DNA of 64,000 nucleotides, taken from contig CAZCYO010000003.1 of assembly GCA_964503265.1 (NCBI GenBank), forward strand, positions 23,740 to 87,739, written 5' to 3'. How positions within the stretch are numbered: position 1 is the stretch's first letter; every line of letters begins with the position of its first letter. The translations under genes were made by a program, and so were the position numbers. Source of the stretch: an uncultured Gammaproteobacteria bacterium. GTDB lineage: Bacteria; Patescibacteriota; Microgenomatia; Levybacterales; UBA12049. Under the pieces are notes generated by a model that worked only from the letters and a program-made list of their open reading frames with translations, did not search any database and was not told where the DNA came from. Positions 415 through 37,857 of the stretch are shown here, in pieces.

Positions 415-1083
415 ATGGCTGCCCCAGGTGAACATGATATAACATATCTTCCAAAAGTTGCTCTTGATCTTCCTCGTCCTGAACTCATGTTTCCAGAACC
501 TGAAGAAGAAATTCCAGCGCACGCATCATCGCTTAATCAGCATACACAGCGAGATGAAGAACATGAATATCAGAATCAATCTTCAAATGACGTAAAGACA
601 TTACTCTCATGGCATGCTCCCGGTCGGCCATTTCAGAGAAAAGGGAAAGAGTATTACGTGAATATTCTGCTTATCATGCTGCTTCTTCAGGTAGTGCTTT
701 TCCTCTTTCATGAATATTTGGCGATGTTCGTCGTGCTTTCATTTGTATTTGTCGCATTTGCTCTCGCTACTGTTCCACCGAAGGACTTTTTTTACCGAAT
801 CTCAACTGAAGGGATTATGATTGAAGACCATTTCTTTCTCTGGCAGGAGTTATATGATTTTTACTTTCGAAGGCTTCCAAATGGAGAAGACATACTACTC
901 GTTCGAACGAAAGCATATATCCCAGGGGAGTTAACGATAGTACTCGGACAACTCCATAAAGAACAGGTGAGACAGATACTTATCCCATATCTACCATTTA
1001 GAGAATACGTCAAACCCACCTTTGTCGAAAAATCAGGAGACTGGTTATCCCACAATTTTCCACTTGAGAAAACGAAACAATAG
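415..1083 (+). CDS. hypothetical membrane protein (acidic N-terminus, two TM helices)
   Basis: 222-aa ORF. Hydrophobic stretch ILLIMLLLQVVLFLF..FVVLSFVFVAFALA. No recognisable catalytic motif. Confidence 0.4.
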   Translation: MAAPGEHDITYLPKVALDLPRPELMFPEPEEEIPAHASSLNQHTQRDEEHEYQNQSSNDVKTLLSWHAPGRPFQRKGKEYYVNILLIMLLLQVVLFLFHEYLAMFVVLSFVFVAFALATVPPKDFFYRISTEGIMIEDHFFLWQELYDFYFRRLPNGEDILLVRTKAYIPGELTIVLGQLHKEQVRQILIPYLPFREYVKPTFVEKSGDWLSHNFPLEKTKQ

Positions 1084-1143
1084 TCCTCGATAGGGTTCAT
1101 TTGCTTCAAAACTCAGAATCAGTTAAAATTACAAGCGTAATAT

Positions 1144-1217
1144 GCTCTCGTAGCTCAGCTGGATAGAGCGCAACTTTGCGGAAGTTGAGGCCGTTGGTCC
1201 GAATCCAATCGAGAGCA
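1144..1217 (+). tRNA. tRNA-Arg (anticodon GCG by hand folding)
   Basis: GCTCTCG-TA-GCTC-AGCTGGATA-GAGC-G-CAACT-TTGCGGA-AGTTG-AGGCC-GTTGG-TCCGAAT-CCAAT-CGAGAGC-A. All four stems pair. Anticodon loop TTGCGGA. Confidence 0.7.
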
Positions 1218-1304
1218 CACTGTCAAACGCGGTCTCGCGTGAAGCTATATTTGTAAGTATATCGGAGGTGGGACGATCTGAGACTAGATTTAAGAAATAA
1301 TCAG

Positions 1305-1393
1305 GGAGGGATCGCATAGTGGTCTAGTGCGGCGGTTTCGAAAACCGCTGTCTCGAGTAATCGGGACCGGGAGTTCAAATCTCCCTCCCTCCG
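1305..1393 (+). tRNA. tRNA-Ser (anticodon CGA)
   Basis: GGAGGGATCGCATAGTGGTCTAGTGCG-GCGGT-TTCGAAA-ACCGC-long variable arm-GGGAG-TTCAAAT-CTCCC-TCCCTCC-G. Acceptor and T arm pair. Long extra arm as in class II tRNAs. Confidence 0.8.
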
Positions 1394-1424
1394 CAGTATT
1401 TAATCTCTTATGAAGTGAAAATTG

Positions 1425-3563
1425 TTAGTGTAGATCGAATGTTGATCCAAATGCTCCGGCAGCTCCCGTCGCTCCCATTGCTCCAGCTCCGATTGCAGCA
1501 GCTCCGGCTCCTGACGCGACAGCCAATCCGATTGGTGCTGCAACTACCATTCCTAATGCCGCAAGAATTGCTAAGATCCATTTCGCTTTTGGCGAATCTG
1601 GAACAATACCTTGTTCACGAAGTGCATTCATAACTTCAGATGATGAACCAGATTGTGCGGAAGCAAAAATTTTACTTAGATTCTCAACTCCACCAAAATT
1701 GTCATGGAGTTTTTTCCATTCATGTTCTTTAAGCGCAAGCTTTCCCATTGCTATTTCAGCTCCGAATACTCCAACAGTTCTATCTGCAGAGCCTCGTGCC
1801 ATAAAGAAGTCTGTCATTAATTTCTTTGTATAGTCTTTCCCAAATTTATCATACGCTGCTGTTAATTGATTTTGTTGTTCTTCAGTTAGTTTATCCATAA
1901 AATCTGCTCCTTCCCAATCTTTGCTATTAGTAGGGAGGATATCAAGGTCTCGAAGAATAAGTTGTTTTACTCCGTCTTCACCATTATAAATAAGATAACT
2001 CATATCGTCTTTCATTTGATCTCTATTTTTCTTTCTATTCTCTCTTCTGGTTGTTCGATCGTAGGTGATCCAATTATTCTTCATTTTATCGGCTAATTTT
2101 TTAGCATCATCTGAACCTTCCTGTTCCATTCTGGCGAGGTCAGCTTCTAAGATATCATCATACTGTTCTTCCATAATCTCGGTAATTGATAATCCCATAA
2201 TTTCTTGCATTTCTTGAATAAGCTTATTTTCCTCTCGAAGACGTGTTTGTCTTGCTTGCTCTTGAGCAGTTCCTGCTTTTGTTCCGTTTGCCGCAATCTC
2301 TCCTTCAGCAGTAGCTATCTTTCCATTACTTTCTGAGATAGCTGCTAGTGATTGTGCCATGCGACTTGTATATTTCCCGTCCACATTGGGAACTGTCATT
2401 GCATTAATTCTATCGGAAAGTGATTTTGCACTGGTAAATCGAGCAGTATCTGCTTGCATTGTTGCATAGTCAGTAAGTGTTGTAGCATGTGCTGCTTCGA
2501 GGTTAGTAATTTCGGCTGTTAAAGCTACTGCTTCGGGGGTGGTTTTATCAGTCATCGCATCAAGCTCAGCTTTTGCCCCTTCGATGTCACCTGAGGCTGT
2601 CATATAATTGTTATACAACTTCACATCAGGATTGCTATTTATAACTACGGTTCTTAGAGTATCAGAGAAGTTTTTAATATCAGCATCAGTCCCTGATGCC
2701 ATATGATCTTTGACCATCTTTTTGAGTTCGTTTTCTTTCTTTTTAATTTCTCCTTTATCAGTAAGAGGAACACCTGCTCCATCAACCATAAAACCAAGTA
2801 GTTTGGCAGATTCGATAACTTGTTTTGTTGACTGGTCAATTCTCGCTTGTTCCTGGTCAATTGTTGCACGTGCTCCTTCTGTGGCTGGATCTTCTTTAAT
2901 TTTAGGTAGTCCGTCTTTTTTCTGTGATACTTCAGAAAGTTTTTGTGAGATTTTTTTAGCCAGATCTGGTTTTGATAGAAGGGTTTGTTCAACGAATGCT
3001 CTTTTACTTTCAGCATCAGGAAACGCATTTAATGTATCACCGAATGTCTCTTGAAAATACGAAGAATTTATAAGTGAATCAAGTGTCGTTTGGCGAAATG
3101 TCGCTAGCGCTTTTCTATCGGGGATACCATGCTTGGTTAAAATATCTGGTATTTTTGCTCCAGGCTCATTTAATTCACTACGAATCTGAGAGTAACTAAG
3201 AAAACCTGTAAGCTCTGTAACAACTTTTCCTGCTTCATCTCGAGCGTCTTTAAACTCACCTCGAGGATTTTTTTCTCCATTTCCAAAAGCTTGTACGAGT
3301 GCATCTTTATTATCAGGGTCAAATTCAGGTACCTTTTTCCCTCTTTCTAAATTTTTACGAAATATTTCTCTTCCAGAAGCTTGAGGAGCGGTTTCTCGTA
3401 TATCTTTTGCACGACGTTGACCAAAATCTATCCTTCGTGCTTGTTCGGGGTTTGTTGTATCATCAATTTTGTCACGCAAATTAGACTTTACTTCACCCAT
3501 TGAAGAAAGTACTTCTCCTGCTTTATATTCTCGTGGTGCTGCTGATGGTGTTCCGTCTGCCAT
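1425..3563 (-). CDS. large (712 aa) charged coiled-coil protein with C-terminal Gly/Ala-rich (glycine-zipper) hydrophobic tail; unknown function
   Basis: Long ORF rich in K/E/D/Q heptad-like segments. The C-terminal 60 aa are WILAILAALGMVVAAPIGLAVASGAGAAAIGAGAMGATGAAGAFG. No enzymatic motif recognised. Confidence 0.5.
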   Translation of the reverse strand: MADGTPSAAPREYKAGEVLSSMGEVKSNLRDKIDDTTNPEQARRIDFGQRRAKDIRETAPQASGREIFRKNLERGKKVPEFDPDNKDALVQAFGNGEKNPRGEFKDARDEAGKVVTELTGFLSYSQIRSELNEPGAKIPDILTKHGIPDRKALATFRQTTLDSLINSSYFQETFGDTLNAFPDAESKRAFVEQTLLSKPDLAKKISQKLSEVSQKKDGLPKIKEDPATEGARATIDQEQARIDQSTKQVIESAKLLGFMVDGAGVPLTDKGEIKKKENELKKMVKDHMASGTDADIKNFSDTLRTVVINSNPDVKLYNNYMTASGDIEGAKAELDAMTDKTTPEAVALTAEITNLEAAHATTLTDYATMQADTARFTSAKSLSDRINAMTVPNVDGKYTSRMAQSLAAISESNGKIATAEGEIAANGTKAGTAQEQARQTRLREENKLIQEMQEIMGLSITEIMEEQYDDILEADLARMEQEGSDDAKKLADKMKNNWITYDRTTRRENRKKNRDQMKDDMSYLIYNGEDGVKQLILRDLDILPTNSKDWEGADFMDKLTEEQQNQLTAAYDKFGKDYTKKLMTDFFMARGSADRTVGVFGAEIAMGKLALKEHEWKKLHDNFGGVENLSKIFASAQSGSSSEVMNALREQGIVPDSPKAKWILAILAALGMVVAAPIGLAVASGAGAAAIGAGAMGATGAAGAFGSTFDLH

Positions 3564-3564
3564 A

Positions 3565-4239
3565 TTAGTTAGTTATATTAGTTAACTGATCTTGAATAGA
3601 ATCAATTTTATTTTGGTCAGCATCTGTTGTAATGTATTTCATTCCGATAGTGTTATAGATAGGCCAGCGTTCGCCAAGTTCTTTTAGGAAATTGACGAGG
3701 TCGGCTTTCGTTTGGACGGAATCTAAATGATCGAGGACGAATTGGGAAGAAGCTTCTGAATCTTCAACCTCTATCTCTCCTTTATCGAGAGCTTCCATCA
3801 TCGCATCAGCTAAGTCTTTATAGAGACTTTCTCTATCTTCCGAAGGTATCTCTCCTAGAACTGAAGCTGGGGCAGGGGAAGTGGTTGCCTGTTCAGTTGG
3901 AGCTGTCGTCACTGCAGGTTCAGGGGCTGGAGAGGTGGAAACGGGGTCGGAAACAGGAGATGGTTGCATAGGAGATGGTATATCTGTCTGGACTGGAGGA
4001 GCGAATGTGTCAGACACAGCAGGTGTCATCGGGTCTGGGATAGCTGGGATGACACTTGGAGCAGGTGGGGTGACTGGATCAGGAGACGTCTCAGGGATCG
4101 TCGGCATAGGAGATGGAACAGTTGGAGTAGGAGTAGACCATGATGATGTCGGAACGACAGGAGTGTCTGTCTGAGGTACAGGTGGAGTAGGTGTGATTGA
4201 CGAATCAACAGAAACATCTGGAGCAGCATTAGAATCCAT
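3565..4239 (-). CDS. Pro/Thr/Ser-rich low-complexity protein with small C-terminal globular domain; unknown function
   Basis: 224-aa ORF 2 nt upstream of the large coiled-coil gene, so likely co-transcribed. The first ~130 aa are PT(S)-rich linker-like sequence. Confidence 0.45.
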   Translation of the reverse strand: MDSNAAPDVSVDSSITPTPPVPQTDTPVVPTSSWSTPTPTVPSPMPTIPETSPDPVTPPAPSVIPAIPDPMTPAVSDTFAPPVQTDIPSPMQPSPVSDPVSTSPAPEPAVTTAPTEQATTSPAPASVLGEIPSEDRESLYKDLADAMMEALDKGEIEVEDSEASSQFVLDHLDSVQTKADLVNFLKELGERWPIYNTIGMKYITTDADQNKIDSIQDQLTNITN

Positions 4240-11442: not shown

Positions 11443-11540
11443 GACTACGTTAGGGGCACCCTTCGCTACTATTTTCAAGCCATTTTTTTAGGAGTGTGGC
11501 CTGCCACTCCGTAGCTCATCCCGTTAGGGTATGAGCGAAG

Positions 11541-11970
11541 GGTGGAGATGTCCGGGAGCGATCCGGAGTCCGAAATATATTTTTAAAAACATCTACAAGC
11601 GTAGTCACAATTTATAGTGTCGTCTGAAACGTGTTCGAGTGACGGAATTTTTCAGACCTAGATCTCTTAATACCACGAAAGTCGAAATCAGTCTCTCTCG
11701 CTGTTTTCCTAACTGTTTTTAGGTCGTTACTTCCACGTTAGGGAGGAAGTAGGACTGTTCAAAGAGCTCGGGTCTTAAGCAGCAAGTGCGAAAGATTGAG
11801 GTGCGAATGCACCGTCAAAAGCGGATTGAACTCCGTCAGCTGCCTTGAGGGCGAATTGACGGACGCTGCGCATTGAGTCAGCATTTATTTTTTGATAATG
11901 TTTTACGACAACTTATCAATGTCGGCTTGCAGTTTTTAAAGAACGTAAATCGTCGAATCAAATCATCCCC
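11541..11970 (-). ncRNA. ssrA: tmRNA (SsrA), ~430 nt
   Basis: The 5' end, GGGGATGATTTGATTCGACGATTTACG, is near-identical to the canonical tmRNA 5' end GGGGCUGAUUCUGGAUUCGACGGGAUUUGCG. The 3' end reads GGAC-TCCGG-ATCGCTC-CCGGA-CATCTCC-A-CC, and the acceptor GGGGATG/CATCTCC includes the G3:U70 alanine identity pair. An internal reading frame ends ...GCA CTT GCT GCT TAA (…FALAA*), the typical tag terminus. The gene lies immediately downstream of smpB. Confidence 0.8.
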
Positions 11971-21455: not shown

Positions 21456-23760
21456 AAAAACTCGAGCCTGCACTTGATGGGAAAGATGACTGACATACAG
21501 AGTTTTCAGTCCCAATCACGAAGAATTCTTGCTTCCCGTTACAAAATTTTTGGACAATGTTGCTTGGCGTACTTCTTTTTGTCTCTGGTCTGTTAGCAAC
21601 GAGGAGTTCCATAATCGAGTGCCAGATTGGGGCAGCTCCAGTAATTCCAGACGCCAAGCTTTGACTCATTGGATCGTTATTATTATTGCCAACCCACACT
21701 GCGACGACGAACTCTGGTGTGTATCCAATGGTCCAGTTATCACGTTTATAATCTGAGGTTCCTGTTTTGACTGAGACAAAGTGATTTGGAATAACGAGAG
21801 GGGAATTTGGACCAAATTCCATCATGCGGGCGTTATTATCAGCTAATATGTCAGACATAATATAACTCACGCTTTGATCAAGTACTCGCACTTTTTCAAC
21901 GTCTTTTTTCTCCTCAAGAATCTCCCCATTACTACTTGTGACTTTTAAGATAGGGTTAGGTGTGACTCGTTCACCTTGATTTGCAAGTGTCCCAAAAACC
22001 GTCGCCATATCCATAACTGTTGTCTCAGCTCCTCCAAGGGTGATCGCAAGTCCGTATTCACTTGGATCTCCCCATGATGTTATTCCCATATTCTTTCCAA
22101 GTGTCACCATTGTCGGAATTCCAACTTGTTGGAGTAATTTAACAGCTGGAATATTAAATGAGTTTCCAAGTGCAGTGCGGAGTGTGACTCTTCCATGAAA
22201 GCGACCATCGTAATTCACTGGCACATATGGTGCACTTCCTTGAATCGGAAACGCTGTAGGAGTGTCATCGATAAGTGTAGCAGCTGTCAATCCATGCTCT
22301 AGTGCGGCGCTGTAGGTAACAACCTTAATGGATGAACCAGGTTGACGAAGACTCATTGTGGCATTTACATTACCACCATTTGGATCGGAGTAATCATGAC
22401 CACCAATCATAGCGAAAATATCTCCATTTGCAGGATCTGTGACCAAGGCTGAGCCATTTGTAACATTTAAATATGCTGCATTTGTGATTTCATTTGTCAC
22501 AATTTCTTGCGCTCTTTCCTGAAGCGGAAGATCAAGTGTGGTATAGACACGAAGTCCACCTTTCTCAACGGCAGCGAGTCCATAGTGTTTTATGAGCAAT
22601 TCTTTTACATACATCACAAAATGTGGTGCGTGGAGGGGCGTTGCAGGCTTTGCAAAGTGAAGCTCTTCTTTTAGAGCATGATCTTGCTGTTTTTTCGTAA
22701 TATATCCGAGTGTTACCATATTACGCAGCACTTCCGTCTGTCTTTTTTTCCAGTACACAGATGACTCACCATAGGGTGAATATGCTGATGGTGCTGAGGT
22801 AATTCCTGCTAAGAAAGCACTTTGTGCGAGGGTTAAGTCTTTTGCATGTTTATTAAAATAGACATCAGCCGCTGCCTCAACGCCCCATGCGGTTCCACCA
22901 TAAGGGATTTGATTAAAGTACATGGCAAGAATTTCTTGTTTGGAATAGATACGCTCTGCCCAAAAAGAAAGAATAACTTCTTTGATTTTACGAACAATAC
23001 TTTTCTCTGGACTAAAAAAAGATGACTTAATGAGTTGCTGGGTGATTGTTGATGCACCTTGAGTATCTCCACCATGAATATTTGAGTTAAACGCACGAAT
23101 CATGGCGGGTACATCAAATCCAAGATGATGATAAAAATTCTTATCTTCAATCGCAAGTGTTGCTTCCTGAATGGTTAATGGGATGTCGCTCAGTGGGATA
23201 ACAGTGCGGTTTTGATTCGCATATATTTGGTAGAGAAGTGTCCCATGTCTGTCATAAATATTCGTAGTTTGCGCAATTTCTCGTGTTTTAAGTGTTTCTG
23301 GATTTGGGAGATCTCTGATAAATAGGATGCTTGCAGTTATAAAACAGAGAAAAAGCGTAAGTACTATCCCAGAGCCGAGAACACGTTTTTTATAAAAAAA
23401 TGGAGTTGGTTTTTGTTTTGTTGATTTTCTTTTTTTCTTTTTATGCTTAACAGTAATGAGTCGTTTGAGTAGAGAGCTTATTTTCCCAAAGAAACTACGT
23501 ATATGCTCTTGAGTATTACTACTGATGTTTATTATAAATGCAATGATTACAGAAATAACCGTTGAAAGTCTGGTAATGATTTTTTTATGTTTTTTAGAAA
23601 AACGTTTTAAGCGCTTATTTATGACTTTACCAAGACGATAAAAAAACGCTACCAAACGAACACCCTGCAAAAACAGGTTAACAGGGAGCTGAAGGTAAAA
23701 AGGATATGAACTATACCTCCGCGCCAAACGAGAAACGAAACGACTTTTACTCATGAACAA
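21445..23760 (-). CDS. class A penicillin-binding protein (PBP1A-type transglycosylase/transpeptidase)
   Basis: GT51 motifs EDKNFYHHLGFD, TITQQLIK. Transpeptidase SxxK (GSSIK), SxN and KTGT present. Confidence 0.85.
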   Translation of the reverse strand: MFMSKSRFVSRLARRYSSYPFYLQLPVNLFLQGVRLVAFFYRLGKVINKRLKRFSKKHKKIITRLSTVISVIIAFIINISSNTQEHIRSFFGKISSLLKRLITVKHKKKKRKSTKQKPTPFFYKKRVLGSGIVLTLFLCFITASILFIRDLPNPETLKTREIAQTTNIYDRHGTLLYQIYANQNRTVIPLSDIPLTIQEATLAIEDKNFYHHLGFDVPAMIRAFNSNIHGGDTQGASTITQQLIKSSFFSPEKSIVRKIKEVILSFWAERIYSKQEILAMYFNQIPYGGTAWGVEAAADVYFNKHAKDLTLAQSAFLAGITSAPSAYSPYGESSVYWKKRQTEVLRNMVTLGYITKKQQDHALKEELHFAKPATPLHAPHFVMYVKELLIKHYGLAAVEKGGLRVYTTLDLPLQERAQEIVTNEITNAAYLNVTNGSALVTDPANGDIFAMIGGHDYSDPNGGNVNATMSLRQPGSSIKVVTYSAALEHGLTAATLIDDTPTAFPIQGSAPYVPVNYDGRFHGRVTLRTALGNSFNIPAVKLLQQVGIPTMVTLGKNMGITSWGDPSEYGLAITLGGAETTVMDMATVFGTLANQGERVTPNPILKVTSSNGEILEEKKDVEKVRVLDQSVSYIMSDILADNNARMMEFGPNSPLVIPNHFVSVKTGTSDYKRDNWTIGYTPEFVVAVWVGNNNNDPMSQSLASGITGAAPIWHSIMELLVANRPETKRSTPSNIVQKFCNGKQEFFVIGTENSVCQSSFPSSAGSSFFRR

Positions 23761-29608: not shown

Positions 29609-30055
29609 ATGCACTGCCCATATTGTGGAAATAGAGAATCTGAAGTAGTTGAGACACGTGATAACGTTGATCTTAACACGATTAGAAGAAGAAGAGCATG
29701 TTTGCAGTGTATTAAACGGTTTACAACGTACGAGCGGGTAGAAAATGTTTACTTGCTAGTGATAAAAAAAGACGGACGACGCGAGCAGTTTAATAGAGAA
29801 AAATTAAAAACTGGACTCTTTAGAGCTTGTGAGAAGACTCGTGTGTCGCACGATATCATTGAAAAAATTGTCAGTGATATTGAACGCGAACTTAGATGTG
29901 CAGAGTCTATTGAAGTGAAAAGTGATGAAATCGGTGAGCGAGTCGCAAGTAAATTAAAACTTGTCGATAAAGTCGCCTATATTCGCTTCTCAAGTGTCTT
30001 TAAACACTTTGTTGCAGTTGAAGATTTTGAAAAAAAAGTAAAGGAATTACAATAA
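29609..30055 (+). CDS. nrdR: transcriptional repressor NrdR
   Basis: MHCPYCG...ETRDN...RRRRAC..C N-terminal zinc ribbon plus ATP-cone. Confidence 0.9.
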   Translation: MHCPYCGNRESEVVETRDNVDLNTIRRRRACLQCIKRFTTYERVENVYLLVIKKDGRREQFNREKLKTGLFRACEKTRVSHDIIEKIVSDIERELRCAESIEVKSDEIGERVASKLKLVDKVAYIRFSSVFKHFVAVEDFEKKVKELQ

Positions 30056-30056
30056 T

Positions 30057-32525
30057 ATGGCACAACAATTAGACGGACTGAGAAAAAAAGTATTTTTAGA
30101 TCGATATGCGCTTAAAGGCGAAGATGGTGGCTTACTTGAAAGTACTCCTGAAGAGATGTGGAGACGCGTCGCGAAAGGAATTGCTGTCACAGAGAAAAAA
30201 GCCGATCGCAAGAAATGGGAAAAAGAATTCTACCGTGTCATGGAAGATTTCAAATTTGTTCCAGCAGGTCGTATCCTCTCTGGTGCGGGAACCGGATACC
30301 AGGTCACCTACTTTAATTGTTTCGTTATCCCATCTCCTCAAGATTCACGTCACGGAATTTTAGAAGCACTTGGTCAACTCGTTGAGATTCAGGCTCGCTC
30401 AGGTGGCGTTGGACTTAATCTTTCATCCCTTCGACCTAAAGGTGCGCGCGTTAAGAAAGTAAATGGTACGTCATCTGGGCCTGTGAACTGGGCGACGCTT
30501 TTCTCAGTTGCTACGCATGATATCGTTCAACAAGGTGGATCACGTCGTGGCGCAACCATGCTTATGCTCTGGGATTGGCATCCAGATATTGAAGAGTTTA
30601 TTACCGTTAAACAGGATCTATCAAAAATTAATGGTGCTAATCTCTCTGTTTGTGTATCTGATGGCTTTATGGAAGCTGTTAAAAATGATCGTGATTGGGA
30701 ACTTGTGTATCCAGATATTACTGATCCACGATACGACGATGAATGGAGAGGAGATCTGCCAAAGTGGAAAGAAATGGGTGGGCAAGTTATAGTCTATAAA
30801 ACTGTTAAAGCTCGATATCTTTGGGATTTGATTTGTGAAGCTGCATGGAGATCTGCAGAACCTGGCCTTCATTTCATGGAGCGATCAAACAAAAGAAGTA
30901 ACACTTGGTATTTTGAACGTCTCGTTGCGACAAATCCATGCGGCGAACAGCCACTTGGGCCATGGGCTGTGTGTAATCTTGGTGCCATGAATTTAAGTGC
31001 GTATGTTAAAGGCGGTGACCTTGCAAGTGAAAAACCAGGAGTGTTTGATTATGAAGAATTTGCAAAAGACACACGAACTGCGCTAAGACTTCTCGATAAT
31101 GTCATTGATCAAACATATTACTTTTTTAAAGAAAATGAAAAATGTGCGAAAGATATTCGACGAACTGGCCTTGGGGTTATGGGCGTAGGTGATGCTTTAA
31201 TAAAAATGAATATTAAATACGGATCTGAAGAATCTCTTCCCGTGCTTGATAAGATTTTTAAAACACTTCGTGATAATGCATACGAAGCATCGACAGAAAT
31301 TGCCGTTGAAAAAGGCGCATTCCCGATGTTTGATAAAGAAAAATACATGCAGGGATATCATATTCAGAATCTCTCAGCTGAAACACGAAAGCATATTGAA
31401 GAGCGTGGTATTCGAAATGCAGTATTGTTAACAATTGCTCCGACAGGGACGACATCACTCGTCTCAGGTGTATCAAGTGGTATTGAGCCAGTCTACGAAT
31501 TCTCCTTCCTTCGTCGCTGGAGAGGTGGAGAAGAGATTGTGTATCATCCATTATTTGAAGAGTGGAAAAAAGCACATCCTGACACAGAAGAACGACCAGA
31601 GTACTTTGTTGGCGCAAATGATTTAACTCCACTTGAGCATGTTAGTGTCCAGGCCGTAGCGCAGCAATACATTGATTCTTCTATCTCAAAAACGGTAAAT
31701 GCTCCTAACGCTCATGCGATTGATGATGTTAAAACACTCTATATGATGGCATATGATATGGGTCTTAAAGGGGTTACGTATATGAGAGATGGTTCACGTG
31801 TGGGAGTACTCGAGCGTGTTGAAGAAAAGAAAGAAGTAAAAGTAGAGGAATCAAAACCAATTATTCCAGTGACGCCTCGCGTTTCACGTCCGATGATGCT
31901 TGAGGGAACGACATATAAATCTGAAAGCCCAAGTGGAAAAATGTATGTAACGATAAATCATGATGAGAACAACCAACCATTTGAAGTCTTTATTAATAAT
32001 GGAAAATCAGGGTCAGACGTTATGGCGATGGCTGATGCGCTTGGCCGTATGATCTCATTTGTGCTTCGTATTCATAGTACTGTCCCACAGAGGGAGCGAA
32101 TTCGAGAAATTGTGTCAGAACTCACAGGTCTTGGTGGCGCGCGAAGTATAGGATTTGGTGAAAACCGTGTTCGGTCACTTCCTGATGCTGTTGCAAAAGT
32201 ACTTTCTCGTCATTTTGACTTTAGAGTAAATGGGAAAGTAGAAGATCGAGTTATTCTTCCAATCACAGCAGACGCTGTAGCTGCAGAAAGTGCTGCTCCG
32301 GTCGTTGAATCTACTACACACATAAATGGTAATGCAAATGGACATAGTAGTACTGCTGTAAATACTCCTGGACAAATGGCAATTTTGCATACAGATGTAC
32401 CAGAAAAGTCAGCTTCCTATGCTTCTACAAGTCTTTTTGATATCTGCCCCGAATGCGGCTCTGCTACGCTTGCGTATGAAGAAGGTTGTCGAAAATGCTA
32501 TAGCTGTGGACACTCAGAGTGCTAG
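30057..32525 (+). CDS. nrdJ: class II (adenosylcobalamin-dependent) ribonucleotide reductase with C-terminal zinc ribbon
   Basis: 822 aa. NPCGEQPL active-site motif. C-terminal CPECGS...CRKCYSCGHSEC. Confidence 0.85.
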   Translation: MAQQLDGLRKKVFLDRYALKGEDGGLLESTPEEMWRRVAKGIAVTEKKADRKKWEKEFYRVMEDFKFVPAGRILSGAGTGYQVTYFNCFVIPSPQDSRHGILEALGQLVEIQARSGGVGLNLSSLRPKGARVKKVNGTSSGPVNWATLFSVATHDIVQQGGSRRGATMLMLWDWHPDIEEFITVKQDLSKINGANLSVCVSDGFMEAVKNDRDWELVYPDITDPRYDDEWRGDLPKWKEMGGQVIVYKTVKARYLWDLICEAAWRSAEPGLHFMERSNKRSNTWYFERLVATNPCGEQPLGPWAVCNLGAMNLSAYVKGGDLASEKPGVFDYEEFAKDTRTALRLLDNVIDQTYYFFKENEKCAKDIRRTGLGVMGVGDALIKMNIKYGSEESLPVLDKIFKTLRDNAYEASTEIAVEKGAFPMFDKEKYMQGYHIQNLSAETRKHIEERGIRNAVLLTIAPTGTTSLVSGVSSGIEPVYEFSFLRRWRGGEEIVYHPLFEEWKKAHPDTEERPEYFVGANDLTPLEHVSVQAVAQQYIDSSISKTVNAPNAHAIDDVKTLYMMAYDMGLKGVTYMRDGSRVGVLERVEEKKEVKVEESKPIIPVTPRVSRPMMLEGTTYKSESPSGKMYVTINHDENNQPFEVFINNGKSGSDVMAMADALGRMISFVLRIHSTVPQRERIREIVSELTGLGGARSIGFGENRVRSLPDAVAKVLSRHFDFRVNGKVEDRVILPITADAVAAESAAPVVESTTHINGNANGHSSTAVNTPGQMAILHTDVPEKSASYASTSLFDICPECGSATLAYEEGCRKCYSCGHSEC

Positions 32526-32624
32526 AGGCATCCGAATTGCTACGAATTATATTCGAATACATTGATGTAATTAGTAGAAATTAGGATATCTTTAGTTATT
32601 CGAAATTATTCGTAGCTAGGTACT

Positions 32625-32800
32625 GTGTTGGAAAAGTATAGGAAATCACGATGAAATTTCGTGACTGTGCCGCAACTGTGAAAGTCAGAAAACTATACTT
32701 AAGTCGTTTCATTCCCGAGCAGGAGTATTCAAGTATAGTAATCTTGTAATCCTTCTTAGGAATTGTTTTTTCTAAAGAAGGATTTTTTGTAAGAATTCTC
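32625..32800 (+). promoter_or_regulatory. cobalamin riboswitch-like leader (compact variant) with intrinsic terminator, upstream of pduO-type gene
   Basis: GGAAATCACGATGAAATTTCGTGACTGTGCCGCAACTGTGAAAGTCAGAAAAC contains the CCGCaACUGU core and an AGUCAG B12-box-like element. Followed by the terminator TCCTTCTTAG...CTAAAGAAGGATTTTTT (32757-32797). Confidence 0.5.
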
Positions 32801-32840
32801 CTTTTCGAAAAAATCTCGTTAGTATACTGCCTCATACGTT

Positions 32841-33410
32841 ATGCCAATTTATACAAAAACAGGAGATCGTGGCCAAACCTCACTTATGGGTGGAGTTCGC
32901 ACGTCAAAATCAAGCTTACGTGTCGAGACATACGGTACTGTCGATGAACTGAATAGTATTGTTGGCGTGGTTATTGCACATTTACCCGCTAAAAACACAC
33001 CATTTGAGGAAGCCCTTGAAGCGATTCAGCATGATTTACTTGAAATCGGTGCAAGCCTGGCAAATCCACAATCAGCTCCATTAACATATTTATTTGATCG
33101 AGTAACAGAGTTTGAAAAAATGATTGATGAATTTACGACAAATCTTCCTGAACTAACTCATTTTATTTTGCCAGGTGGAGGCGTGACAGGTGCATCGCTT
33201 CATCACGCACGTACGATTTGTCGCCGACTTGAACGAGTGCTTGTACGACTTCAAGACAAAGAGCCTATTGATGCAACGATTGTGATGTATGTTAATAGGT
33301 TATCTGACCTCTTTTTCACTATGGCGCGATTTACGAATCATCTGACAGGAGAAAAAGAAACAGTATGGATCTCACGAAAACAATCTATTACTAGTAAAAA
33401 AAGTAAATAA
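32841..33410 (+). CDS. PduO-type ATP:cob(I)alamin adenosyltransferase
   Basis: MPIYTKTGDRGQTSLMGG...RVETYGTVDELNS matches the PduO/MMAB N-terminal signature. Confidence 0.85.
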   Translation: MPIYTKTGDRGQTSLMGGVRTSKSSLRVETYGTVDELNSIVGVVIAHLPAKNTPFEEALEAIQHDLLEIGASLANPQSAPLTYLFDRVTEFEKMIDEFTTNLPELTHFILPGGGVTGASLHHARTICRRLERVLVRLQDKEPIDATIVMYVNRLSDLFFTMARFTNHLTGEKETVWISRKQSITSKKSK

Positions 33411-33414
33411 CCTG

Positions 33415-33550
33415 GTGAATCTGGTGTAATTCCAGAACTGTGCCGCAACTGTGAAGTCCCGATCTCTATCGGGAATAAGTCAGATCCCGATGTGAATCTT
33501 CCGAGCAGAAGTAGATTTTTCTACACTCCTTGGAAGCAAGGAGTTTTTTT
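33415..33550 (+). promoter_or_regulatory. cobalamin riboswitch (core GGUG.AA.UCC...GCCGCAACUGU...AGUCAG) with terminator/SD-sequestering hairpin
   Basis: CTGGTGAATCTGGTGTAATTCCAGAACTGTGCCGCAACTGTGAAGTCCCGATCTCTATCGGGAATAAGTCAGATCCCG. Expression platform CTCCTTG-GAAG-CAAGGAG + TTTTTTT ends 1 nt before the ATG, and the AAGGAG Shine-Dalgarno lies inside the hairpin. Confidence 0.6.
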
Positions 33551-34912
33551 ATGCCTGTAGAAGTATTACAACAATTATCCGAAGCAGAACGAGTAAGTCC
33601 ATCAAAGATAAAAACAGATGAGGCACATGATTTTCTTGGAGAAAAAAAGCAGCAACCATATCTTCAAAAACAAGATATGTATGAATCTGAAGTTATAAAG
33701 GTGCAACCAAAGACACTTAAAGAATATGTTGCGTTTTTTGATAAAGAAATGCGGTCATCGGAGCTACCCTGGTATACGTTAGATAATAAAGTTGGATTTA
33801 GTATGAAATCACAAATGCAATTACTTGATATGAAAGATACGTCTTCTGTGGATAGATGGGCTGTTCAAACCAAACAAGATTTACTTGGGTTTTGTCTCGA
33901 ATATTTATCAGATAAGTTAGTCTATCCGTATAAATATGAAGAGGTAACATTACCAAATGGCGAAGCATCTCTTCGTGATACAAAATATGGTAAAGACATT
34001 CTTGAAACGACATCAGCTAAAGAACGAAATGGAAGTGTACTTGATGCACTTAAAGAAGTAAAAACGTTTTTTGTTAGGGAGGCTGGAGATACAGAAAAGC
34101 CATCAGGGAAAGCTGAGCAATCTATTGCTGTTATGTGTAGTCCTCTTGGACCAAGTGGGCTTGAAACAGATAATGGAGAATCGATTCATTACCCTGATTC
34201 GTATTGGTTTATTTTTGAAAGAAAAGGAAAGGAAATTCGGGGTGTTACGATACGAACGGATTTTACGATAACAGAATGTCGTGAAGCTTTGCGTATGTTA
34301 ACAGGAAAAGTTCTTCCCGAAGGTTCACTTCTTGAAGATTATGCGAGAGCTTTGACATGTATCCCTGGCGAAAAACAAAAAACCGCATTTGATATTGTTG
34401 ATACATTACGACAAGCTCGGGCACATGTGACAGAAAATACGAAAACTGTATTTGGTGATAAAAAATGGGACGAAGTTATATCCGACATGAAACAAGGGCA
34501 ATCACTCTATGAATTTAACGATAAGACTAAAGATGTCATAAAAGAATTTGAAGAGTATGTTACGACGAACCAGCTTTCACAGTTAGACATTCAAAAAGCA
34601 CTTGCTGCCACATTCTTACGACTTTCAAAGCTGTTTATCCTGTCAGAAGAAGATCAGGAATCGCTTACTGAAAATGGCGAGTTATTTGAGGAAATTCTTA
34701 CTCGAGTAGCATCAATTCCTGGATGTGCGGGTGGAGGCGGTGGAGTGACCGCTGTTGAATCTGCGGGTGGAATTCGGTTAGGAATGTTACAAGAAAAAAC
34801 ACTTAAATGTAAAGAATGCCCGTTATGTAAAGAGAAAGATATTGTTGCTACCATTTCAAATGGAAAAATAACCTGCCCAAAATGTGGCAAGTCTGCTCCG
34901 TATGATTGCTAG
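33551..34912 (+). CDS. hypothetical protein with C-terminal CxxC...CxxC zinc ribbon; riboswitch-controlled
   Basis: I chose the start at MPVEVL, after the riboswitch terminator. The C-terminus is GGGGG linker then CKECPLC...CPKCGK. No other motif recognised. Confidence 0.45.
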   Translation: MPVEVLQQLSEAERVSPSKIKTDEAHDFLGEKKQQPYLQKQDMYESEVIKVQPKTLKEYVAFFDKEMRSSELPWYTLDNKVGFSMKSQMQLLDMKDTSSVDRWAVQTKQDLLGFCLEYLSDKLVYPYKYEEVTLPNGEASLRDTKYGKDILETTSAKERNGSVLDALKEVKTFFVREAGDTEKPSGKAEQSIAVMCSPLGPSGLETDNGESIHYPDSYWFIFERKGKEIRGVTIRTDFTITECREALRMLTGKVLPEGSLLEDYARALTCIPGEKQKTAFDIVDTLRQARAHVTENTKTVFGDKKWDEVISDMKQGQSLYEFNDKTKDVIKEFEEYVTTNQLSQLDIQKALAATFLRLSKLFILSEEDQESLTENGELFEEILTRVASIPGCAGGGGGVTAVESAGGIRLGMLQEKTLKCKECPLCKEKDIVATISNGKITCPKCGKSAPYDC

Positions 34913-34961: not shown

Positions 34962-35480
34962 ATGGATAATACTGCTCAAAACCAAGCTCAAACAGTACCA
35001 GTTGCGTCTCAGCCCTCCCAACCGGTGACGCCTGTTGCTCAGCCACAAGCAGAATCAATTACTCAGCCAGTAGCGCTTGATCAACCCCAGACACAGGTTC
35101 AAGCGACTCCTATAGCTCCTGTTAGTCTTCCGCATCGTGAAGCAGGACCTGGACTTGGACGAATGAATGAACTTATGATGCCGAGTGAGGTTGCGCCTGT
35201 ACTTTCAGCTGAAGTAAAAGCAGCAGGAGTTGAGGTGTCTGCAGACCGTGAGCAACCAGTTGTTCCAGCAGACGTGGCTCAGGCTGGTGTTCAGCCTGCT
35301 AAAGCTGCAGTCCCAATGCACACTGTAACAGGATCAAACGTACAATATATTACGAATGCACCATTTGGTCCTGAAGAAGCAATAAAATTCGAAAAATCGA
35401 CACGAGCTTCTGATAGTATACGGTGGCTCGCAACTTTTTTATTGAGACAAGTAAAAAAAGTAGCGATTTTTGGAAAATAA
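34962..35480 (+). CDS. Pro/Gln/Ala-rich low-complexity protein, unknown function
   Basis: 172 aa. Overlaps the start of the downstream ATPase gene by 11 nt. Confidence 0.35.
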   Translation: MDNTAQNQAQTVPVASQPSQPVTPVAQPQAESITQPVALDQPQTQVQATPIAPVSLPHREAGPGLGRMNELMMPSEVAPVLSAEVKAAGVEVSADREQPVVPADVAQAGVQPAKAAVPMHTVTGSNVQYITNAPFGPEEAIKFEKSTRASDSIRWLATFLLRQVKKVAIFGK

Positions 35481-37857
35481 TATGGAAAGTGTCATTAGCT
35501 CATCTCAAACATTTATGTTGGCTCTTTTTATAGGAGTTATTGTGATTGGGATACTGCTGTTACTAGGGTATGGGTTAGGATATTTCTTGCTGTTATGGTT
35601 TCGTAATAGAAAACGCGAGTCGGACTCTCTTAATTCCACACTGTTACAAGTGGCAGTCTCACGCGATAATGAAGTTAAAATCGATGCCGCAGAGCAACTA
35701 TTTACGAGCCTTGCATCGATTCGGAAAACAAATAAAATGGCATATTTTGGTGCTCAGCCACATATTTCATTTGAAATTGTCGGTACTCCTGGAGACATAC
35801 GATTTTATGTCAATGTTCCAAATAAATTACGTGACTTTGTGGAAAAGCAGATTAATGGAGCCTACCCTGATGCCGATATCATGCCAGTCTCAGATCCAGC
35901 TGCAAAACAGCGAGCAAATAATATTTTAGGGAGTGAATATAATATTTTTTCTGAGAAGGGGAAAGTGGCGTTTGCCTCGCTTTATCTAAAAGGCGCACCG
36001 TATATGCCAATTAAGGTGTTTAAAGATTTTCCTGTTGATCCATTAGCATCTATTACGTCTATTTTGGCGAAAATGAGCGAGGGGGAGGGAGCTGCAATTC
36101 AAATCTTAATACGCCCTGCAGATCCTAAATGGAGAAGTATAGGTAAAAGTTATATTTCAAAAACAAAAAAAGGTGAAGCTAATCCTGAAACAGCTAAATA
36201 CTCAACAGATGCAAAAGAAATGGAAGGGGTGGAAAATAAAACCAATAAAGCTGGGTTTGATTGTACCGTTCGACTTGTTGTCTCAAGTAGTTCTCACGAG
36301 GCAGCAGAAGCACATTTATCAAATATGGTGCAAGCGTACAGTCAATATAACGGAGCAAATTCATTTAAGAAAAATAAACACCGCTTTTTTAAAGGAAGTT
36401 TCATCACTGACTTTATTTATCGTTATTTTCCACTTTTTGGACATACGTCGCTTCTTAATAGTGAAGAGTTGGCGACACTGTTCCATTTTCCAAATAAAAG
36501 TATTACCACTCCTGGTATTTACTGGGTAACATCAAAACGTTCTCCTGCACCTGCGAATATTCCAACTGATGGTTTATATTTAGGAAAAAGTACCTACCGG
36601 GGTATTTCACGTCCAATTCATATTTCAGATGACGATAGACGTCGACACATGTACATCATCGGAAAGACTGGAACTGGTAAGTCAGAATTTCTGAAACAAA
36701 TGATTATGCAGGATATTAAAAATGGAAAAGGACTAGCTGTGATTGATCCTCATGGAGATTTAGTCGAGGATGTTCTTCAGATGATGCCACCAGAACGTGC
36801 CGAAGACGTTATTCTTTTTGATCCAGCAGACACGTCTCGCCCGATGAGTTTAAACATGCTTGAGGCAGAGACAGAGGAACAGAAGCACTATGTTGTATCA
36901 TCTCTGATTGGACTGATGTATAAATTATTTGATCCGAATAAAACTGGTATCATCGGTCCACGATTTGAGCATGCGATTCGAAATGCGATGTTAACAGTTA
37001 TGTACGCAAAAGGCAGTACTCTTATTGAACTTGTCCGCGCCCTCACAGACCAAGCCTTTGTCCAAGAAATTTTGCCACTTGTCGATGATCCAATTATCAG
37101 ACGTTACTGGACTGATCAAATCGCACAAACGTCAGATTTTCATAAATCAGAAGTACTTGATTACATTGTGTCCAAATTTGGCCGTTTTGTTACGAATAAA
37201 ATGATTCGAAATATCATCGGGCAGTCAGATAGTTCATTTAACTTTAGAAAAGTAATGGATGAAGGAAAAATCATTCTCGTTAACTTATCAAAAGGAAAAA
37301 TTGGAGAAGAGAACTCAAGTTTCTTAGGGTTAGTGCTTGTGCCAAAGATTTTAACTGCAGCGATGAGTCGACAGAATATCCCACAGTCAGAACGCCGGGA
37401 TTTTTATCTCTATGTGGATGAGTTTCAGAATTTTGCGACACCTGATTTCGCACAGATTCTATCTGAGGCTCGAAAATATCGCTTGAATCTTATCGTTGCG
37501 AATCAGTTTATTGGACAAATGGATGAAGAAGTGAAAAATGCTATTTTTGGAAATGTAGGAACAATCGCGTCATTTCGTGTCGGCGTTACTGATGCAAATT
37601 ATATTCAGCACGAATTCCAACCGACGTTTAGTGAAGCAGATTTAATTAATGTTGATCGTTTTAATTGCTACATGAAGACACTCGTGAACGGTGAACCAGC
37701 ACCACCATTCTCACTTGATACGACCAAAAACATTGAAGAAGAGAAGAAATTGATGAATCCACGGGTCGCAGAACTCGTTAAAGAGCTTTCAAAATTAAAA
37801 TATGGCCGTGATGTCCATCTCGTTGAAGCAGAGATTACTCAACGTGCGAAGCTCTAA
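35470..37857 (+). CDS. membrane-anchored FtsK/HerA-superfamily ATPase, VirB4/VirD4 (type IV secretion / DNA-uptake)-like
   Basis: N-terminal TM hairpin. Walker A YIIGKTGTGKSEF at about aa 397, Walker B LYVDEFQNFAT, and a conserved C-terminal block ANQFIGQMD. Confidence 0.55.
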   Translation: MENNMESVISSSQTFMLALFIGVIVIGILLLLGYGLGYFLLLWFRNRKRESDSLNSTLLQVAVSRDNEVKIDAAEQLFTSLASIRKTNKMAYFGAQPHISFEIVGTPGDIRFYVNVPNKLRDFVEKQINGAYPDADIMPVSDPAAKQRANNILGSEYNIFSEKGKVAFASLYLKGAPYMPIKVFKDFPVDPLASITSILAKMSEGEGAAIQILIRPADPKWRSIGKSYISKTKKGEANPETAKYSTDAKEMEGVENKTNKAGFDCTVRLVVSSSSHEAAEAHLSNMVQAYSQYNGANSFKKNKHRFFKGSFITDFIYRYFPLFGHTSLLNSEELATLFHFPNKSITTPGIYWVTSKRSPAPANIPTDGLYLGKSTYRGISRPIHISDDDRRRHMYIIGKTGTGKSEFLKQMIMQDIKNGKGLAVIDPHGDLVEDVLQMMPPERAEDVILFDPADTSRPMSLNMLEAETEEQKHYVVSSLIGLMYKLFDPNKTGIIGPRFEHAIRNAMLTVMYAKGSTLIELVRALTDQAFVQEILPLVDDPIIRRYWTDQIAQTSDFHKSEVLDYIVSKFGRFVTNKMIRNIIGQSDSSFNFRKVMDEGKIILVNLSKGKIGEENSSFLGLVLVPKILTAAMSRQNIPQSERRDFYLYVDEFQNFATPDFAQILSEARKYRLNLIVANQFIGQMDEEVKNAIFGNVGTIASFRVGVTDANYIQHEFQPTFSEADLINVDRFNCYMKTLVNGEPAPPFSLDTTKNIEEEKKLMNPRVAELVKELSKLKYGRDVHLVEAEITQRAKL

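Follow-up and report, generated by a model that had tools for sequence, protein, structure and literature searches.

Two predicted class-II-like cobalamin riboswitches of different subtypes on either side of a pduO adenosyltransferase gene in a Levybacterales genome

Introduction

The gene pduO, encoding a PduO-type cob(I)alamin adenosyltransferase, is bracketed at the locus studied here by two leader regions that both resemble cobalamin riboswitches, which raises the question of whether two working switches flank a single gene, or whether one of them is a decayed duplicate or a repeat unrelated to vitamin B12. The locus lies on contig CAZCYO010000003.1 of an uncultured bacterium (GenBank assembly GCA_964503265.1; GTDB lineage Patescibacteriota, Levybacterales), of which we analysed a stretch of 64,000 nucleotides (nt; positions 23,740 to 87,739 of the forward strand), called the window below and numbered from its first letter. 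Leader 1 separates pduO from nrdJ, and leader 2 separates it from a gene without family match, which we call X (Table 1). We are fairly confident that the elements in the two leaders, riboswitch 1 (RS1) and riboswitch 2 (RS2), are class-II-like cobalamin riboswitches that turn off pduO and X, respectively, by premature termination of transcription, and the ligand of RS1 is most probably adenosylcobalamin (AdoCbl).

Results

Detection of the two aptamers

A scan of the window at the Rfam gathering thresholds reported one riboswitch, RS1, which matches RF01689 (AdoCbl-II) at positions 32626-32703 with 52.8 bits (gathering score 36.5; E 5e-10 for the whole window). RS2 was seen in a permissive scan of 1.3 kb (32400-33700), in which positions 33388-33523 match RF01482 (AdoCbl) with 36.7 bits (gathering score 50; E 8.7e-5); of the two, RS1 alone, through RF01689, reaches the gathering score of a model of clan CL00101. 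The covariance models that the first-pass annotation had proposed to run therefore support leader 1 outright and leave leader 2 below threshold. On the other hand, RS2 is backed by 11 orthologous copies, each located directly upstream of a homologue of X. The same annotation had suspected a Cbl-II-like minimal riboswitch upstream of pduO, and this is borne out by the RF01689 score, by four helices (P3 to P6) that are intact and covary, and by a downstream gene matching PF01923 and TIGR00636. Both thus belong to a known RNA class, RS2 as a relative that scores below threshold and is recovered through the comparison of orthologues.

An exact 19-nt repeat, ACTGTGCCGCAACTGTGAA, occurs at 32664-32682 and 33437-33455, and covers in both leaders the joining region J4/5, P5 with its loop L5, J5/6, the 5' strand of P6, and the start of loop L6. 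An identical block of 20 nt in two copies about 770 bp apart had been claimed; the block is real and the measured spacing is 773 nt, although its exact length is 19 nt and the earlier coordinates were off by 1-3 nt. The repeat widens to 31 nt at 84% identity, and a second common block, CCGAGCAG[G/A]AGTA, is found at 32715-32727 and 33501-33513. That the identical block could be a dispersed repeat or a mobile-element remnant unrelated to B12 was named at the outset as the finding that would overturn the riboswitch reading. We found no point in favour of this explanation and consider it next to impossible: with up to three mismatches permitted, ACTGTGCCGCAACTGTGAA has two matches only in the 64 kb (chance expectation 0.01), and in 13 related loci the motif is confined to cobalamin-riboswitch matches upstream of the same genes. 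Together with the RF01689 match of leader 1, this copy number and these orthologous contexts refute it.

Comparative analysis of orthologous loci

Related loci were reached via the homologues of X (61 proteins) and comprise 13 distinct loci from Levybacteria-like and other Patescibacteria assemblies (numbered within L001 to L014); a 10-member alignment gave four genome and two metagenome loci, and the rest are contigs encoding homologues. The gene order nrdR-nrdJ-...-pduO-X-small open reading frame (ORF)-ATPase recurs across them. The core motif GTGCCGCAACTGT is present at two kinds of site only, and the 20 riboswitches compared fall into two subtypes accordingly: 8 of subtype 1, including RS1, ahead of either pduO alone or a DUF4430-DUF6580-pduO operon, and 12 of subtype 2, including RS2, always directly upstream of X. 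The RS2 aptamer starts 2 nt past the pduO stop codon, as do its counterparts in L005, L007, L008, and L011. A clan CL00101 model matches 19 of the 20 sites, and the gathering score is passed by 5, among which L009_2 (RF01689, 43.4 bits) is the only subtype-2 orthologue.

For the analysis of covariation, sequences were parsed on the conserved core and pairs were counted on gap-free trimmed alignments. Over all 20 sequences, 98.9% of the cells in P4, P5, and P6 are paired and 8 of 10 pairs have changed on both sides, a level reached by none of 500 shuffles, and sliding the partners leaves 26-56% paired. Within subtype 1, with the 8-bp P3 included, the figures are 94.4% of cells and 13 of 18 pairs (again 0/500 shuffles as high). 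The two P5 pairs around L5 covary (UG/CA, AG/CU, UA/UA). The subtype-1 orthologues have an uninterrupted P3 of 6-12 bp, and the P3 of subtype 2 has 3-6 bp, with G-C/U-A/U-G and C-G/U-A/A-U variation. The joining regions are diagnostic: J3/4 is G-N-A-A-U/G and J6/3 is AAAA in 8/8 subtype-1 copies, and the corresponding segments are UGAA and A-[U/G/C]-C in 12/12 subtype-2 copies. P13 stems and terminator sequences are subtype-specific as well. The alignment of the leaders with orthologous regions, recommended earlier as a check, thus shows four covarying helices and separates two subtypes, and RS1 and RS2 are, judged by their sequences, old paralogous subtypes.

The Rfam label does not separate these subtypes. 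Whether an orthologue matches RF01689 or RF01482 is decided by an optional hairpin in L6/P6: L011_1, of subtype 1 with the hairpin, scores as RF01482 (51.3 bits), and the above-mentioned L009_2, of subtype 2 without it, as RF01689. Among the RS1 orthologues, the hairpin is present on P6 in L002_1, L007_1, L008_1, L011_1, and L014_1.

A recent duplication of one riboswitch into the other can be ruled out, since in a 35-nt core RS1 is 83-91% identical to 5 of 7 subtype-1 orthologues from other genomes and 74% identical to RS2. Of the 20 riboswitches, 12 share the core CUGUGCCGCAACUGU without any change, and the 19-nt identity appears to reflect purifying selection on the ligand and kissing-loop core rather than recent duplication.

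Both switches are present in the window, L002, L007, L008, L011, and L014; L001 and L004 have subtype 1 only, with pduO abutting X; L009 and L013 have subtype 2 only; in L010 and L012, X with its subtype-2 switch lies apart from pduO and nrdJ; and L003 and L005 are truncated upstream. Two switches bracketing one gene, which had been called unusual, are therefore common in this lineage (6/13 loci). Short G+C-rich hairpins were observed in subtype-2 leaders, with the sequence CCCCGAUUYAAUCGGGG in L008, L011, and L014 and CCCCCAAGAAUAYAGGGGG in L009 and L013; they are located in the linker between aptamer and P13 (all five loci), and also in L6 (L008) and inside P13 (L014), and look like a small mobile or repeated element.

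Integrity of RS1

Leader 1 had also been suspected of being a decayed duplicate, partly on account of a degenerate GGUG.AA.UCC element. An element of this kind, GATGAAATTTCG (GAUGAAAUUUCG), is indeed present at 32650-32661, where it forms the P4/L4 hairpin of RS1, but the change in it is not decay: the loop-closing G-C pair has been swapped for A-U, with both sides changed and the pairing compensated. Nor do the sequences support a decayed duplicate of leader 2, as leader 1 is closer to the subtype-1 orthologues than to RS2 and carries the J3/4 and J6/3 signature of that subtype.

A related explanation would make RS1 a pseudo-riboswitch, decaying or without function, that remained when the DUF4430-DUF6580 uptake genes, which it governs in related genomes, were lost. 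Three observations speak for it: (i) a 52-nt spacer without Shine-Dalgarno sequence (32789-32840) separates the RS1 terminator from the pduO ATG, while the U-run abuts the start codon in L002, L004, L007, L008, L011, and L014; (ii) a second copy of the P3 5' strand (Table 1), absent from the seven orthologous subtype-1 leaders and hence specific to the window, can pair with the P3 3' strand and does so in the unconstrained minimum-free-energy fold, in competition with closure of the aptamer; and (iii) no homologue of DUF4430 or DUF6580 was found in the 64-kb window by tblastn. They are outweighed by the state of RS1 itself, which has the highest Rfam score among the subtype-1 copies, a perfect P3 of 8 bp, a compensated P4, and an intact L5, L13, antiterminator, and terminator, and we regard loss of function as very improbable. 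The duplicated P3 strand and the spacer may be scars from the loss of the uptake genes. The spacer in L001 is similar to that of leader 1 and opens with a mini-ORF, AUG-UGA.

Proposed kissing loop, terminators, and predicted antiterminators

The second common block corresponds to a hairpin, P13, which follows the aptamer at a distance of 10-40 nt (about 80 nt in L013_2), with stems of UCC/GGA in subtype 1 and CUUC/GAAG in subtype 2. Loop L5 is UGCCG in 20/20 sequences, and loop L13 is CGAGCA in 15/20, the variants (CGCGCA, CGGAGCA, CGAGUCA, CGAGCAA, and CGAGCCA) altering only the middle of the loop, i.e., the bulge. In each of the 20 sequences, UGCCG is able to pair with CG(A)GCA, through five Watson-Crick pairs and with one bulged A. 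In solved structures, bound cobalamin stabilises a kissing loop between L5 and L13, in which at least one nucleotide is always unpaired (Polaski 2016, PMC5028336; PMC7367189), and by analogy we propose that L5 and L13 of both leaders form this kissing loop.

Every one of the 20 leaders closes in a stem-loop followed by a U-run, in line with the hairpin and T-run noted earlier at the end of both window leaders (Table 1). The RS1 terminator has an A+U-rich stem of 14 pairs (-13.0 kcal/mol) and was missed by a simple terminator scan because the stem is G+C poor. All 12 subtype-2 leaders continue from the U-run at once into AUG or UUG, and the 3' arm of the terminator contains GAGGAG as Shine-Dalgarno sequence; in RS2 this is AAGGAG (33538-33543), serving gene X. 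RS2 would thus, besides terminating transcription, hide the Shine-Dalgarno sequence of X in the terminator stem, and the X operon is probably included in this control.

The terminator, in its 5' arm and loop, is complementary to the P13/L13 region, with a mean z of -2.6 against shuffles over the 20 leaders; in 13 of them the observed duplex energy is attained by no more than 5% of shuffles, and 15 are included at 6%. The duplex energy is -12.8 kcal/mol (z -3.7) in RS1, where the P13 region doubles as the 5' half of the antiterminator, and -11.5 kcal/mol (z -3.9) in RS2. We folded nascent transcripts, with the RNA extending up to the terminator loop and then with the 3' arm added. The antiterminator was the minimum-free-energy fold in 13/13 leaders tested, at -9.6 to -18.9 kcal/mol (-14.3 kcal/mol in RS1; -15.6 kcal/mol in RS2, where CUUCCGAG pairs with CUUGGAAG), and in subtype 2 its helix is capped by the small hairpin P14; addition of the 3' arm gave the terminator in most of the 13. 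Unconstrained folds of whole leaders did not reproduce the aptamer and always showed the terminator, so thermodynamic folding alone cannot show switching. RNAalifold, applied to a MAFFT alignment of the subtype-2 platforms, recovered P13 only, because the variable P14 and terminator regions misalign, and per-sequence folds were used instead.

Gene neighbourhood and other features of the window

Downstream of X lie a 172-aa ORF and a gene for a VirD4/TraD/CedD-like ATPase. A scan found no terminator on the + strand after X, and the order of X, the 172-aa ORF, and the ATPase is held in about 10 loci, the ATPase being annotated with DUF8128 in related loci; the two genes are probably co-transcribed with X in an operon controlled by RS2. 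In the related loci, DUF6580 precedes pduO under the subtype-1 switch of L002, L004, L008, L011, and L014. A DUF4430 gene ahead of DUF6580 was confirmed in L008, L011, and L014 and none was identified in L002, while in L004 a small ORF at this position is DUF4430-like by eye, without a Pfam match. DUF6580 is weakly similar to the S component of energy-coupling factor (ECF) transporters (E 0.001), and the DUF4430 and DUF6580 proteins are candidates for corrinoid capture and uptake. In a 566-aa protein of L008, DUF4430 and an alpha/alpha-toroid domain occur together.

The stretch separating the stop codon of nrdJ from RS1 contains an inverted repeat rich in A+T, GCTACGAATTAT / ATTATTCGTAGC, with arms 54 nt apart (32539-32616); it gives a weak and spurious mir-3140 match and may be a 3' structure of nrdJ. 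In L013, nrdJ (455-4039) encodes 1194 aa with a LAGLIDADG domain, an insertion that is probably an intein. Elsewhere, the window contains a transfer-messenger RNA (RF00023, 105.8 bits; 11540-11970, - strand) that, compared with the model, has about 70 nt inserted just past the start of the tag template, and seven tRNA matches, several with long variable arms or inserts. A group I intron match (RF00028, 70.6 bits) lies near tRNA genes in L005 (7092-7277).

Table 1. Positions of the riboswitch elements, the surrounding genes, and selected features of related loci
Feature	Sequence	Position	Strand	Evidence or remark
nrdR	Window	29609-30055	+	Just upstream of nrdJ
nrdJ, adenosylcobalamin-dependent class II ribonucleotide reductase	Window	30057-32525	+	Pfam Ribonuc_red_lgC (E 2e-120) and TSCPD; NCBIfam TIGR02504 NrdJ_Z, 577.6 bits (cut-off 400)
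Leader 1, 315 nt	Window	32526-32840	+	Between nrdJ and pduO
RS1 aptamer, subtype 1, compact four-way junction	Window	32634-32700	+	RF01689 match and covariation
RS1 P3	Window	32634-32641 / 32693-32700	+	Continuous 8 bp, AAGUAUAG/CUAUACUU
RS1 J3/4	Window	32642-32646	+	GAAAU
RS1 P4/L4	Window	32647-32663	+	
RS1 P5/L5	Window	32666-32674	+	L5 UGCCG at 32668-32672
RS1 P6/L6	Window	32676-32688	+	L6 of 7 nt, without P6 hairpin
RS1 J6/3	Window	32689-32692	+	AAAA
RS1 P13 hairpin	Window	32711-32726	+	AUUCC / GGAGU; loop L13 CGAGCA at 32716-32721
Second copy of P3 5' strand (AAGUAUAG) in leader 1	Window	32731-32738	+	Direct and inverted repeats
RS1 intrinsic terminator	Window	32748-32788	+	Arms 32748-32762 / 32770-32784, U6 at 32783-32788; inverted repeat, fold
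pduO, PduO-type cob(I)alamin adenosyltransferase, 189 aa	Window	32841-33410	+	PF01923 (E 1e-56); TIGR00636, 187.9 bits (cut-off 108)
Leader 2, 140 nt	Window	33411-33550	+	Between pduO and gene X
RS2 aptamer, subtype 2	Window	33413-33489	+	Sub-threshold RF01482 match, orthologues, and covariation
RS2 P3	Window	33413-33415 / 33487-33489	+	
RS2 J3/4	Window	33416-33419	+	UGAA
RS2 P4/L4	Window	33420-33436	+	
RS2 P5/L5	Window	33439-33447	+	L5 at 33441-33445
RS2 P6	Window	33449-33451 / 33481-33483	+	Inserted 18-nt hairpin 33457-33474 in L6
RS2 J6/3	Window	33484-33486	+	AUC
RS2 P13 (with P14)	Window	33498-33524	+	CUUC / GAAG; L13 CGAGCA at 33502-33507
RS2 P14, small hairpin	Window	33511-33524	+	Caps antiterminator helix
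RS2 intrinsic terminator	Window	33525-33550	+	Stem 33525-33544 (8 bp), U7 at 33544-33550; terminator scan and folds
Gene X, 453-aa ORF without family match	Window	33551-34912	+	ATG at 33551; directly downstream of RS2
172-aa ORF without family match	Window	34962-35480	+	3' of gene X
VirD4/TraD/CedD-like ATPase, 795 aa	Window	35470-37857	+	Pfam TrwB_AAD_bind, DUF87, T4SS-DNA_transf; NCBIfam TraD and CedD-like matches
DUF4430/DUF6580 gene region	L002	3507-4034		
DUF4430/DUF6580 gene region	L004	4231-5283		
DUF4430/DUF6580 gene region	L008	1087-4283		
DUF4430/DUF6580 gene region	L011	3348-4289		
DUF4430/DUF6580 gene region	L014	3161-4118		
G+C-rich hairpins	L008	4896-4913, 4929-4946		Approximate
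G+C-rich hairpin	L009	4896-4917		Approximate
G+C-rich hairpin	L011	4919-4936		Approximate
G+C-rich hairpin	L013	4896-4917		Approximate
G+C-rich hairpins	L014	4872-4889, 4900-4917		Approximate

Discussion

From the aptamer helices, complementarities, and alternative folds observed in the two leaders, we infer ligand binding, a role for the kissing loop, and the direction of control. A corrinoid would be bound by the four-way junction of P3 to P6, as membership of the family suggests, and the bound ligand would stabilise the L5-L13 kissing loop, a function assigned by analogy with env8 and other solved cobalamin riboswitches. The kissing loop would keep the L13 region within the small P13 hairpin, leaving the terminator free to fold and end transcription; in the ligand-free state, the L13 nucleotides would be taken up by pairing with the terminator (its 5' arm and loop) to give the computed antiterminator, resulting in read-through. 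Since RS2 starts immediately after pduO, X is probably subject to two gates in succession, RS1 first and RS2 second, and transcribed by read-through from the pduO transcript; alternatively, a promoter within the 3' end of pduO could drive X.

Several points weigh against this interpretation: (i) RS2 is below every Rfam gathering score, and its P3 comprises just about 3 bp in the window; (ii) the helix alignments were trimmed by hand and anchored on the conserved motif; (iii) L5 never varies, which places the kissing loop beyond the reach of covariation; (iv) in full-length thermodynamic folds, both window terminators form without ligand, so control must be kinetic; and (v) the duplicated P3 strand of leader 1 is a competitor of the aptamer, and given this competitor and the 52-nt spacer, the output of RS1 in the window could be weaker than in its orthologues.

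The class to which the two riboswitches belong can be narrowed down by comparison with published descriptions. The P2 loop-stem-loop and the P7-P11 extension of P6, characteristic of Cbl-I, are found in neither. With RF01689 (formerly 'AdoCbl-variant'; Cbl-II), whose archetype is env8 (PDB 4FRN/4FRG), there is agreement in the compact P3-P6 junction without P2 and P7-P11, in the L4 sequence UGAAAUU, and in the proposed L5-L13 kissing loop with an unpaired nucleotide. In contrast to env8, however, the leaders described here lack the internal T-loop of J1/3, P3 being one continuous helix, and would operate with a terminator and antiterminator, while the env8 type sequesters a ribosome-binding site lying in L13; L13 is CGAGCA here and not a Shine-Dalgarno sequence. 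Cbl-IIa is defined by the J1/3 T-loop (PMC6158498; PMC7367189), which contacts J6/3. This T-loop is absent from RS1 and its orthologues, as their continuous P3 helices indicate; in RS1, the P1 of the model has two non-standard pairs and J1/3 is shortened. Cbl-IIb, by comparison, has a paired J1/3 and a P6 with at most a short hairpin and is AdoCbl selective (PMC7367189, Fig. 1). RS2 has both of its features, a paired or short J1/3 and a P6 hairpin, the latter shared with most orthologues of both subtypes, whereas RS1 has the J1/3 feature and no P6 hairpin. In architecture, both leaders thus resemble Cbl-IIb.

It is also conceivable, though unlikely in our view, that the two aptamers sense different forms of cobalamin, e.g., hydroxocobalamin (HyCbl) or methylcobalamin (MeCbl) for RS1 and AdoCbl for RS2, in which case the adenosyltransferase would be flanked by a sensor of its substrate and a sensor of its product. 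The subtypes hold distinct J3/4 and J6/3 segments and are kept side by side in six loci, and J3/4 reportedly contributes to selectivity in class II. J6/3 together with J1/3 has been named as a determinant of upper-ligand selectivity in this class (PMC6158498), and RS1 best matches RF01689, the archetype of which prefers HyCbl/MeCbl (PMC7367189). These arguments are countered by several others: (i) RS1 and its orthologues do not have the J1/3 T-loop that contacts the ligand pocket in Cbl-IIa; (ii) either subtype occurs with and without the P6 hairpin, and which of the two models an orthologue matches can change; (iii) class II members cover the whole range of selectivity, which hence cannot be read from the class (PMC6158498); (iv) in regulatory terms, there would be little point in repressing an adenosyltransferase while its substrate is plentiful; and (v) the sole evident B12-dependent enzyme at the locus, NrdJ, uses AdoCbl as its cofactor. 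A broader version of this idea, equally doubtful, is that two subtypes differing in ligand response, by upper-ligand form or by affinity, are arranged in series around pduO, with the distal one controlling a previously unrecognised B12-related function of X.

The preferred reading, two OFF switches of class-II-like type acting in series, follows known principles, with established precedents for class-II-like aptamers, for L5-L13 kissing loops, and for terminator platforms. In Bacillus subtilis, the operon for corrinoid uptake and adenosyltransferase, btuFCDR (yvrC-yvrB-yvrA-yvqK), is under a cobalamin riboswitch of the OFF type, which responds to AdoCbl in vivo (PMC9600662; PMC7367189). The subtype-1 switches ahead of DUF6580-pduO operons in L002, L004, L008, L011, and L014 resemble this arrangement; the B. 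subtilis aptamer, however, has a P2 arm, the transporter there is BtuFCD, the adenosyltransferase gene is btuR (yvqK), and no second switch follows btuR, in contrast to the riboswitch that follows pduO here. Tandem riboswitches (Sudarsan et al. 2006, cited in PMC9600662) likewise place two terminator switches in series, and the distal gene requires read-through of both, but in the window a complete gene lies between the switches, the proximal gene sees only one of them, and both belong to the same clan. Less ordinary are the arrangement of two subtypes in series around a single gene, the fact that Rfam under-detects them, and family X. In the literature searched, we found no paper on cobalamin riboswitches in bacteria of the candidate phyla radiation.

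Gene X would be controlled directly by RS2, and a cobalamin riboswitch lies upstream of X in 13/13 loci. Its homologues are 61 proteins, all unnamed, and the family has at least 374 representatives at the 50% identity level; members have about 430-540 aa, and the homologues in the window and in L001 to L014 share the motifs VGFSMKxQM, ERNG, SPxGxxGLxTDxG..YPDSY, and IPGCAGGG. Searches of Pfam and NCBIfam gave no family match. The AlphaFold2 model is confident (mean predicted local distance difference test score, pLDDT, 80). The protein has a helical bundle beside a PAS-like sheet, as well as a conserved GCAGGG loop and, at its C-terminus, a CxxC..CxxC zinc ribbon, and no match was found among solved structures beyond the PAS-like sheet and the eL43-like zinc ribbon. 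Two candidate roles can be put forward, (i) that of a corrinoid-handling partner of PduO, for instance a reductase or chaperone with a PAS-like domain and a Cys4 ribbon, and (ii) a part, together with the conserved VirD4/CedD-like ATPase, in a B12-independent supply of deoxynucleotides when NrdJ is without cofactor. X itself as an NrdD-like or other B12-independent reductase was considered and rejected, the hits including no matching family, domain, or fold.

To conclude, the window holds two cobalamin riboswitches where a standard Rfam scan reports one, and because orthologues, depending on an optional P6 hairpin, match one or the other of RF01689 and RF01482 or stay below both thresholds, the lineage as a whole is under-annotated. 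The small-genome bacteria of this lineage appear to use B12 for NrdJ only, and their candidate uptake proteins (DUF4430 and DUF6580), the adenosyltransferase, and the widespread family X are apparently all under cobalamin control. Linkage to a riboswitch is a classic route to the function of genes lacking one, and X, with a cobalamin riboswitch ahead of it in every locus, is on these grounds a concrete candidate for a new B12-related protein. The protein family X, which RS2 would control, is therefore the main new lead to come from this locus.

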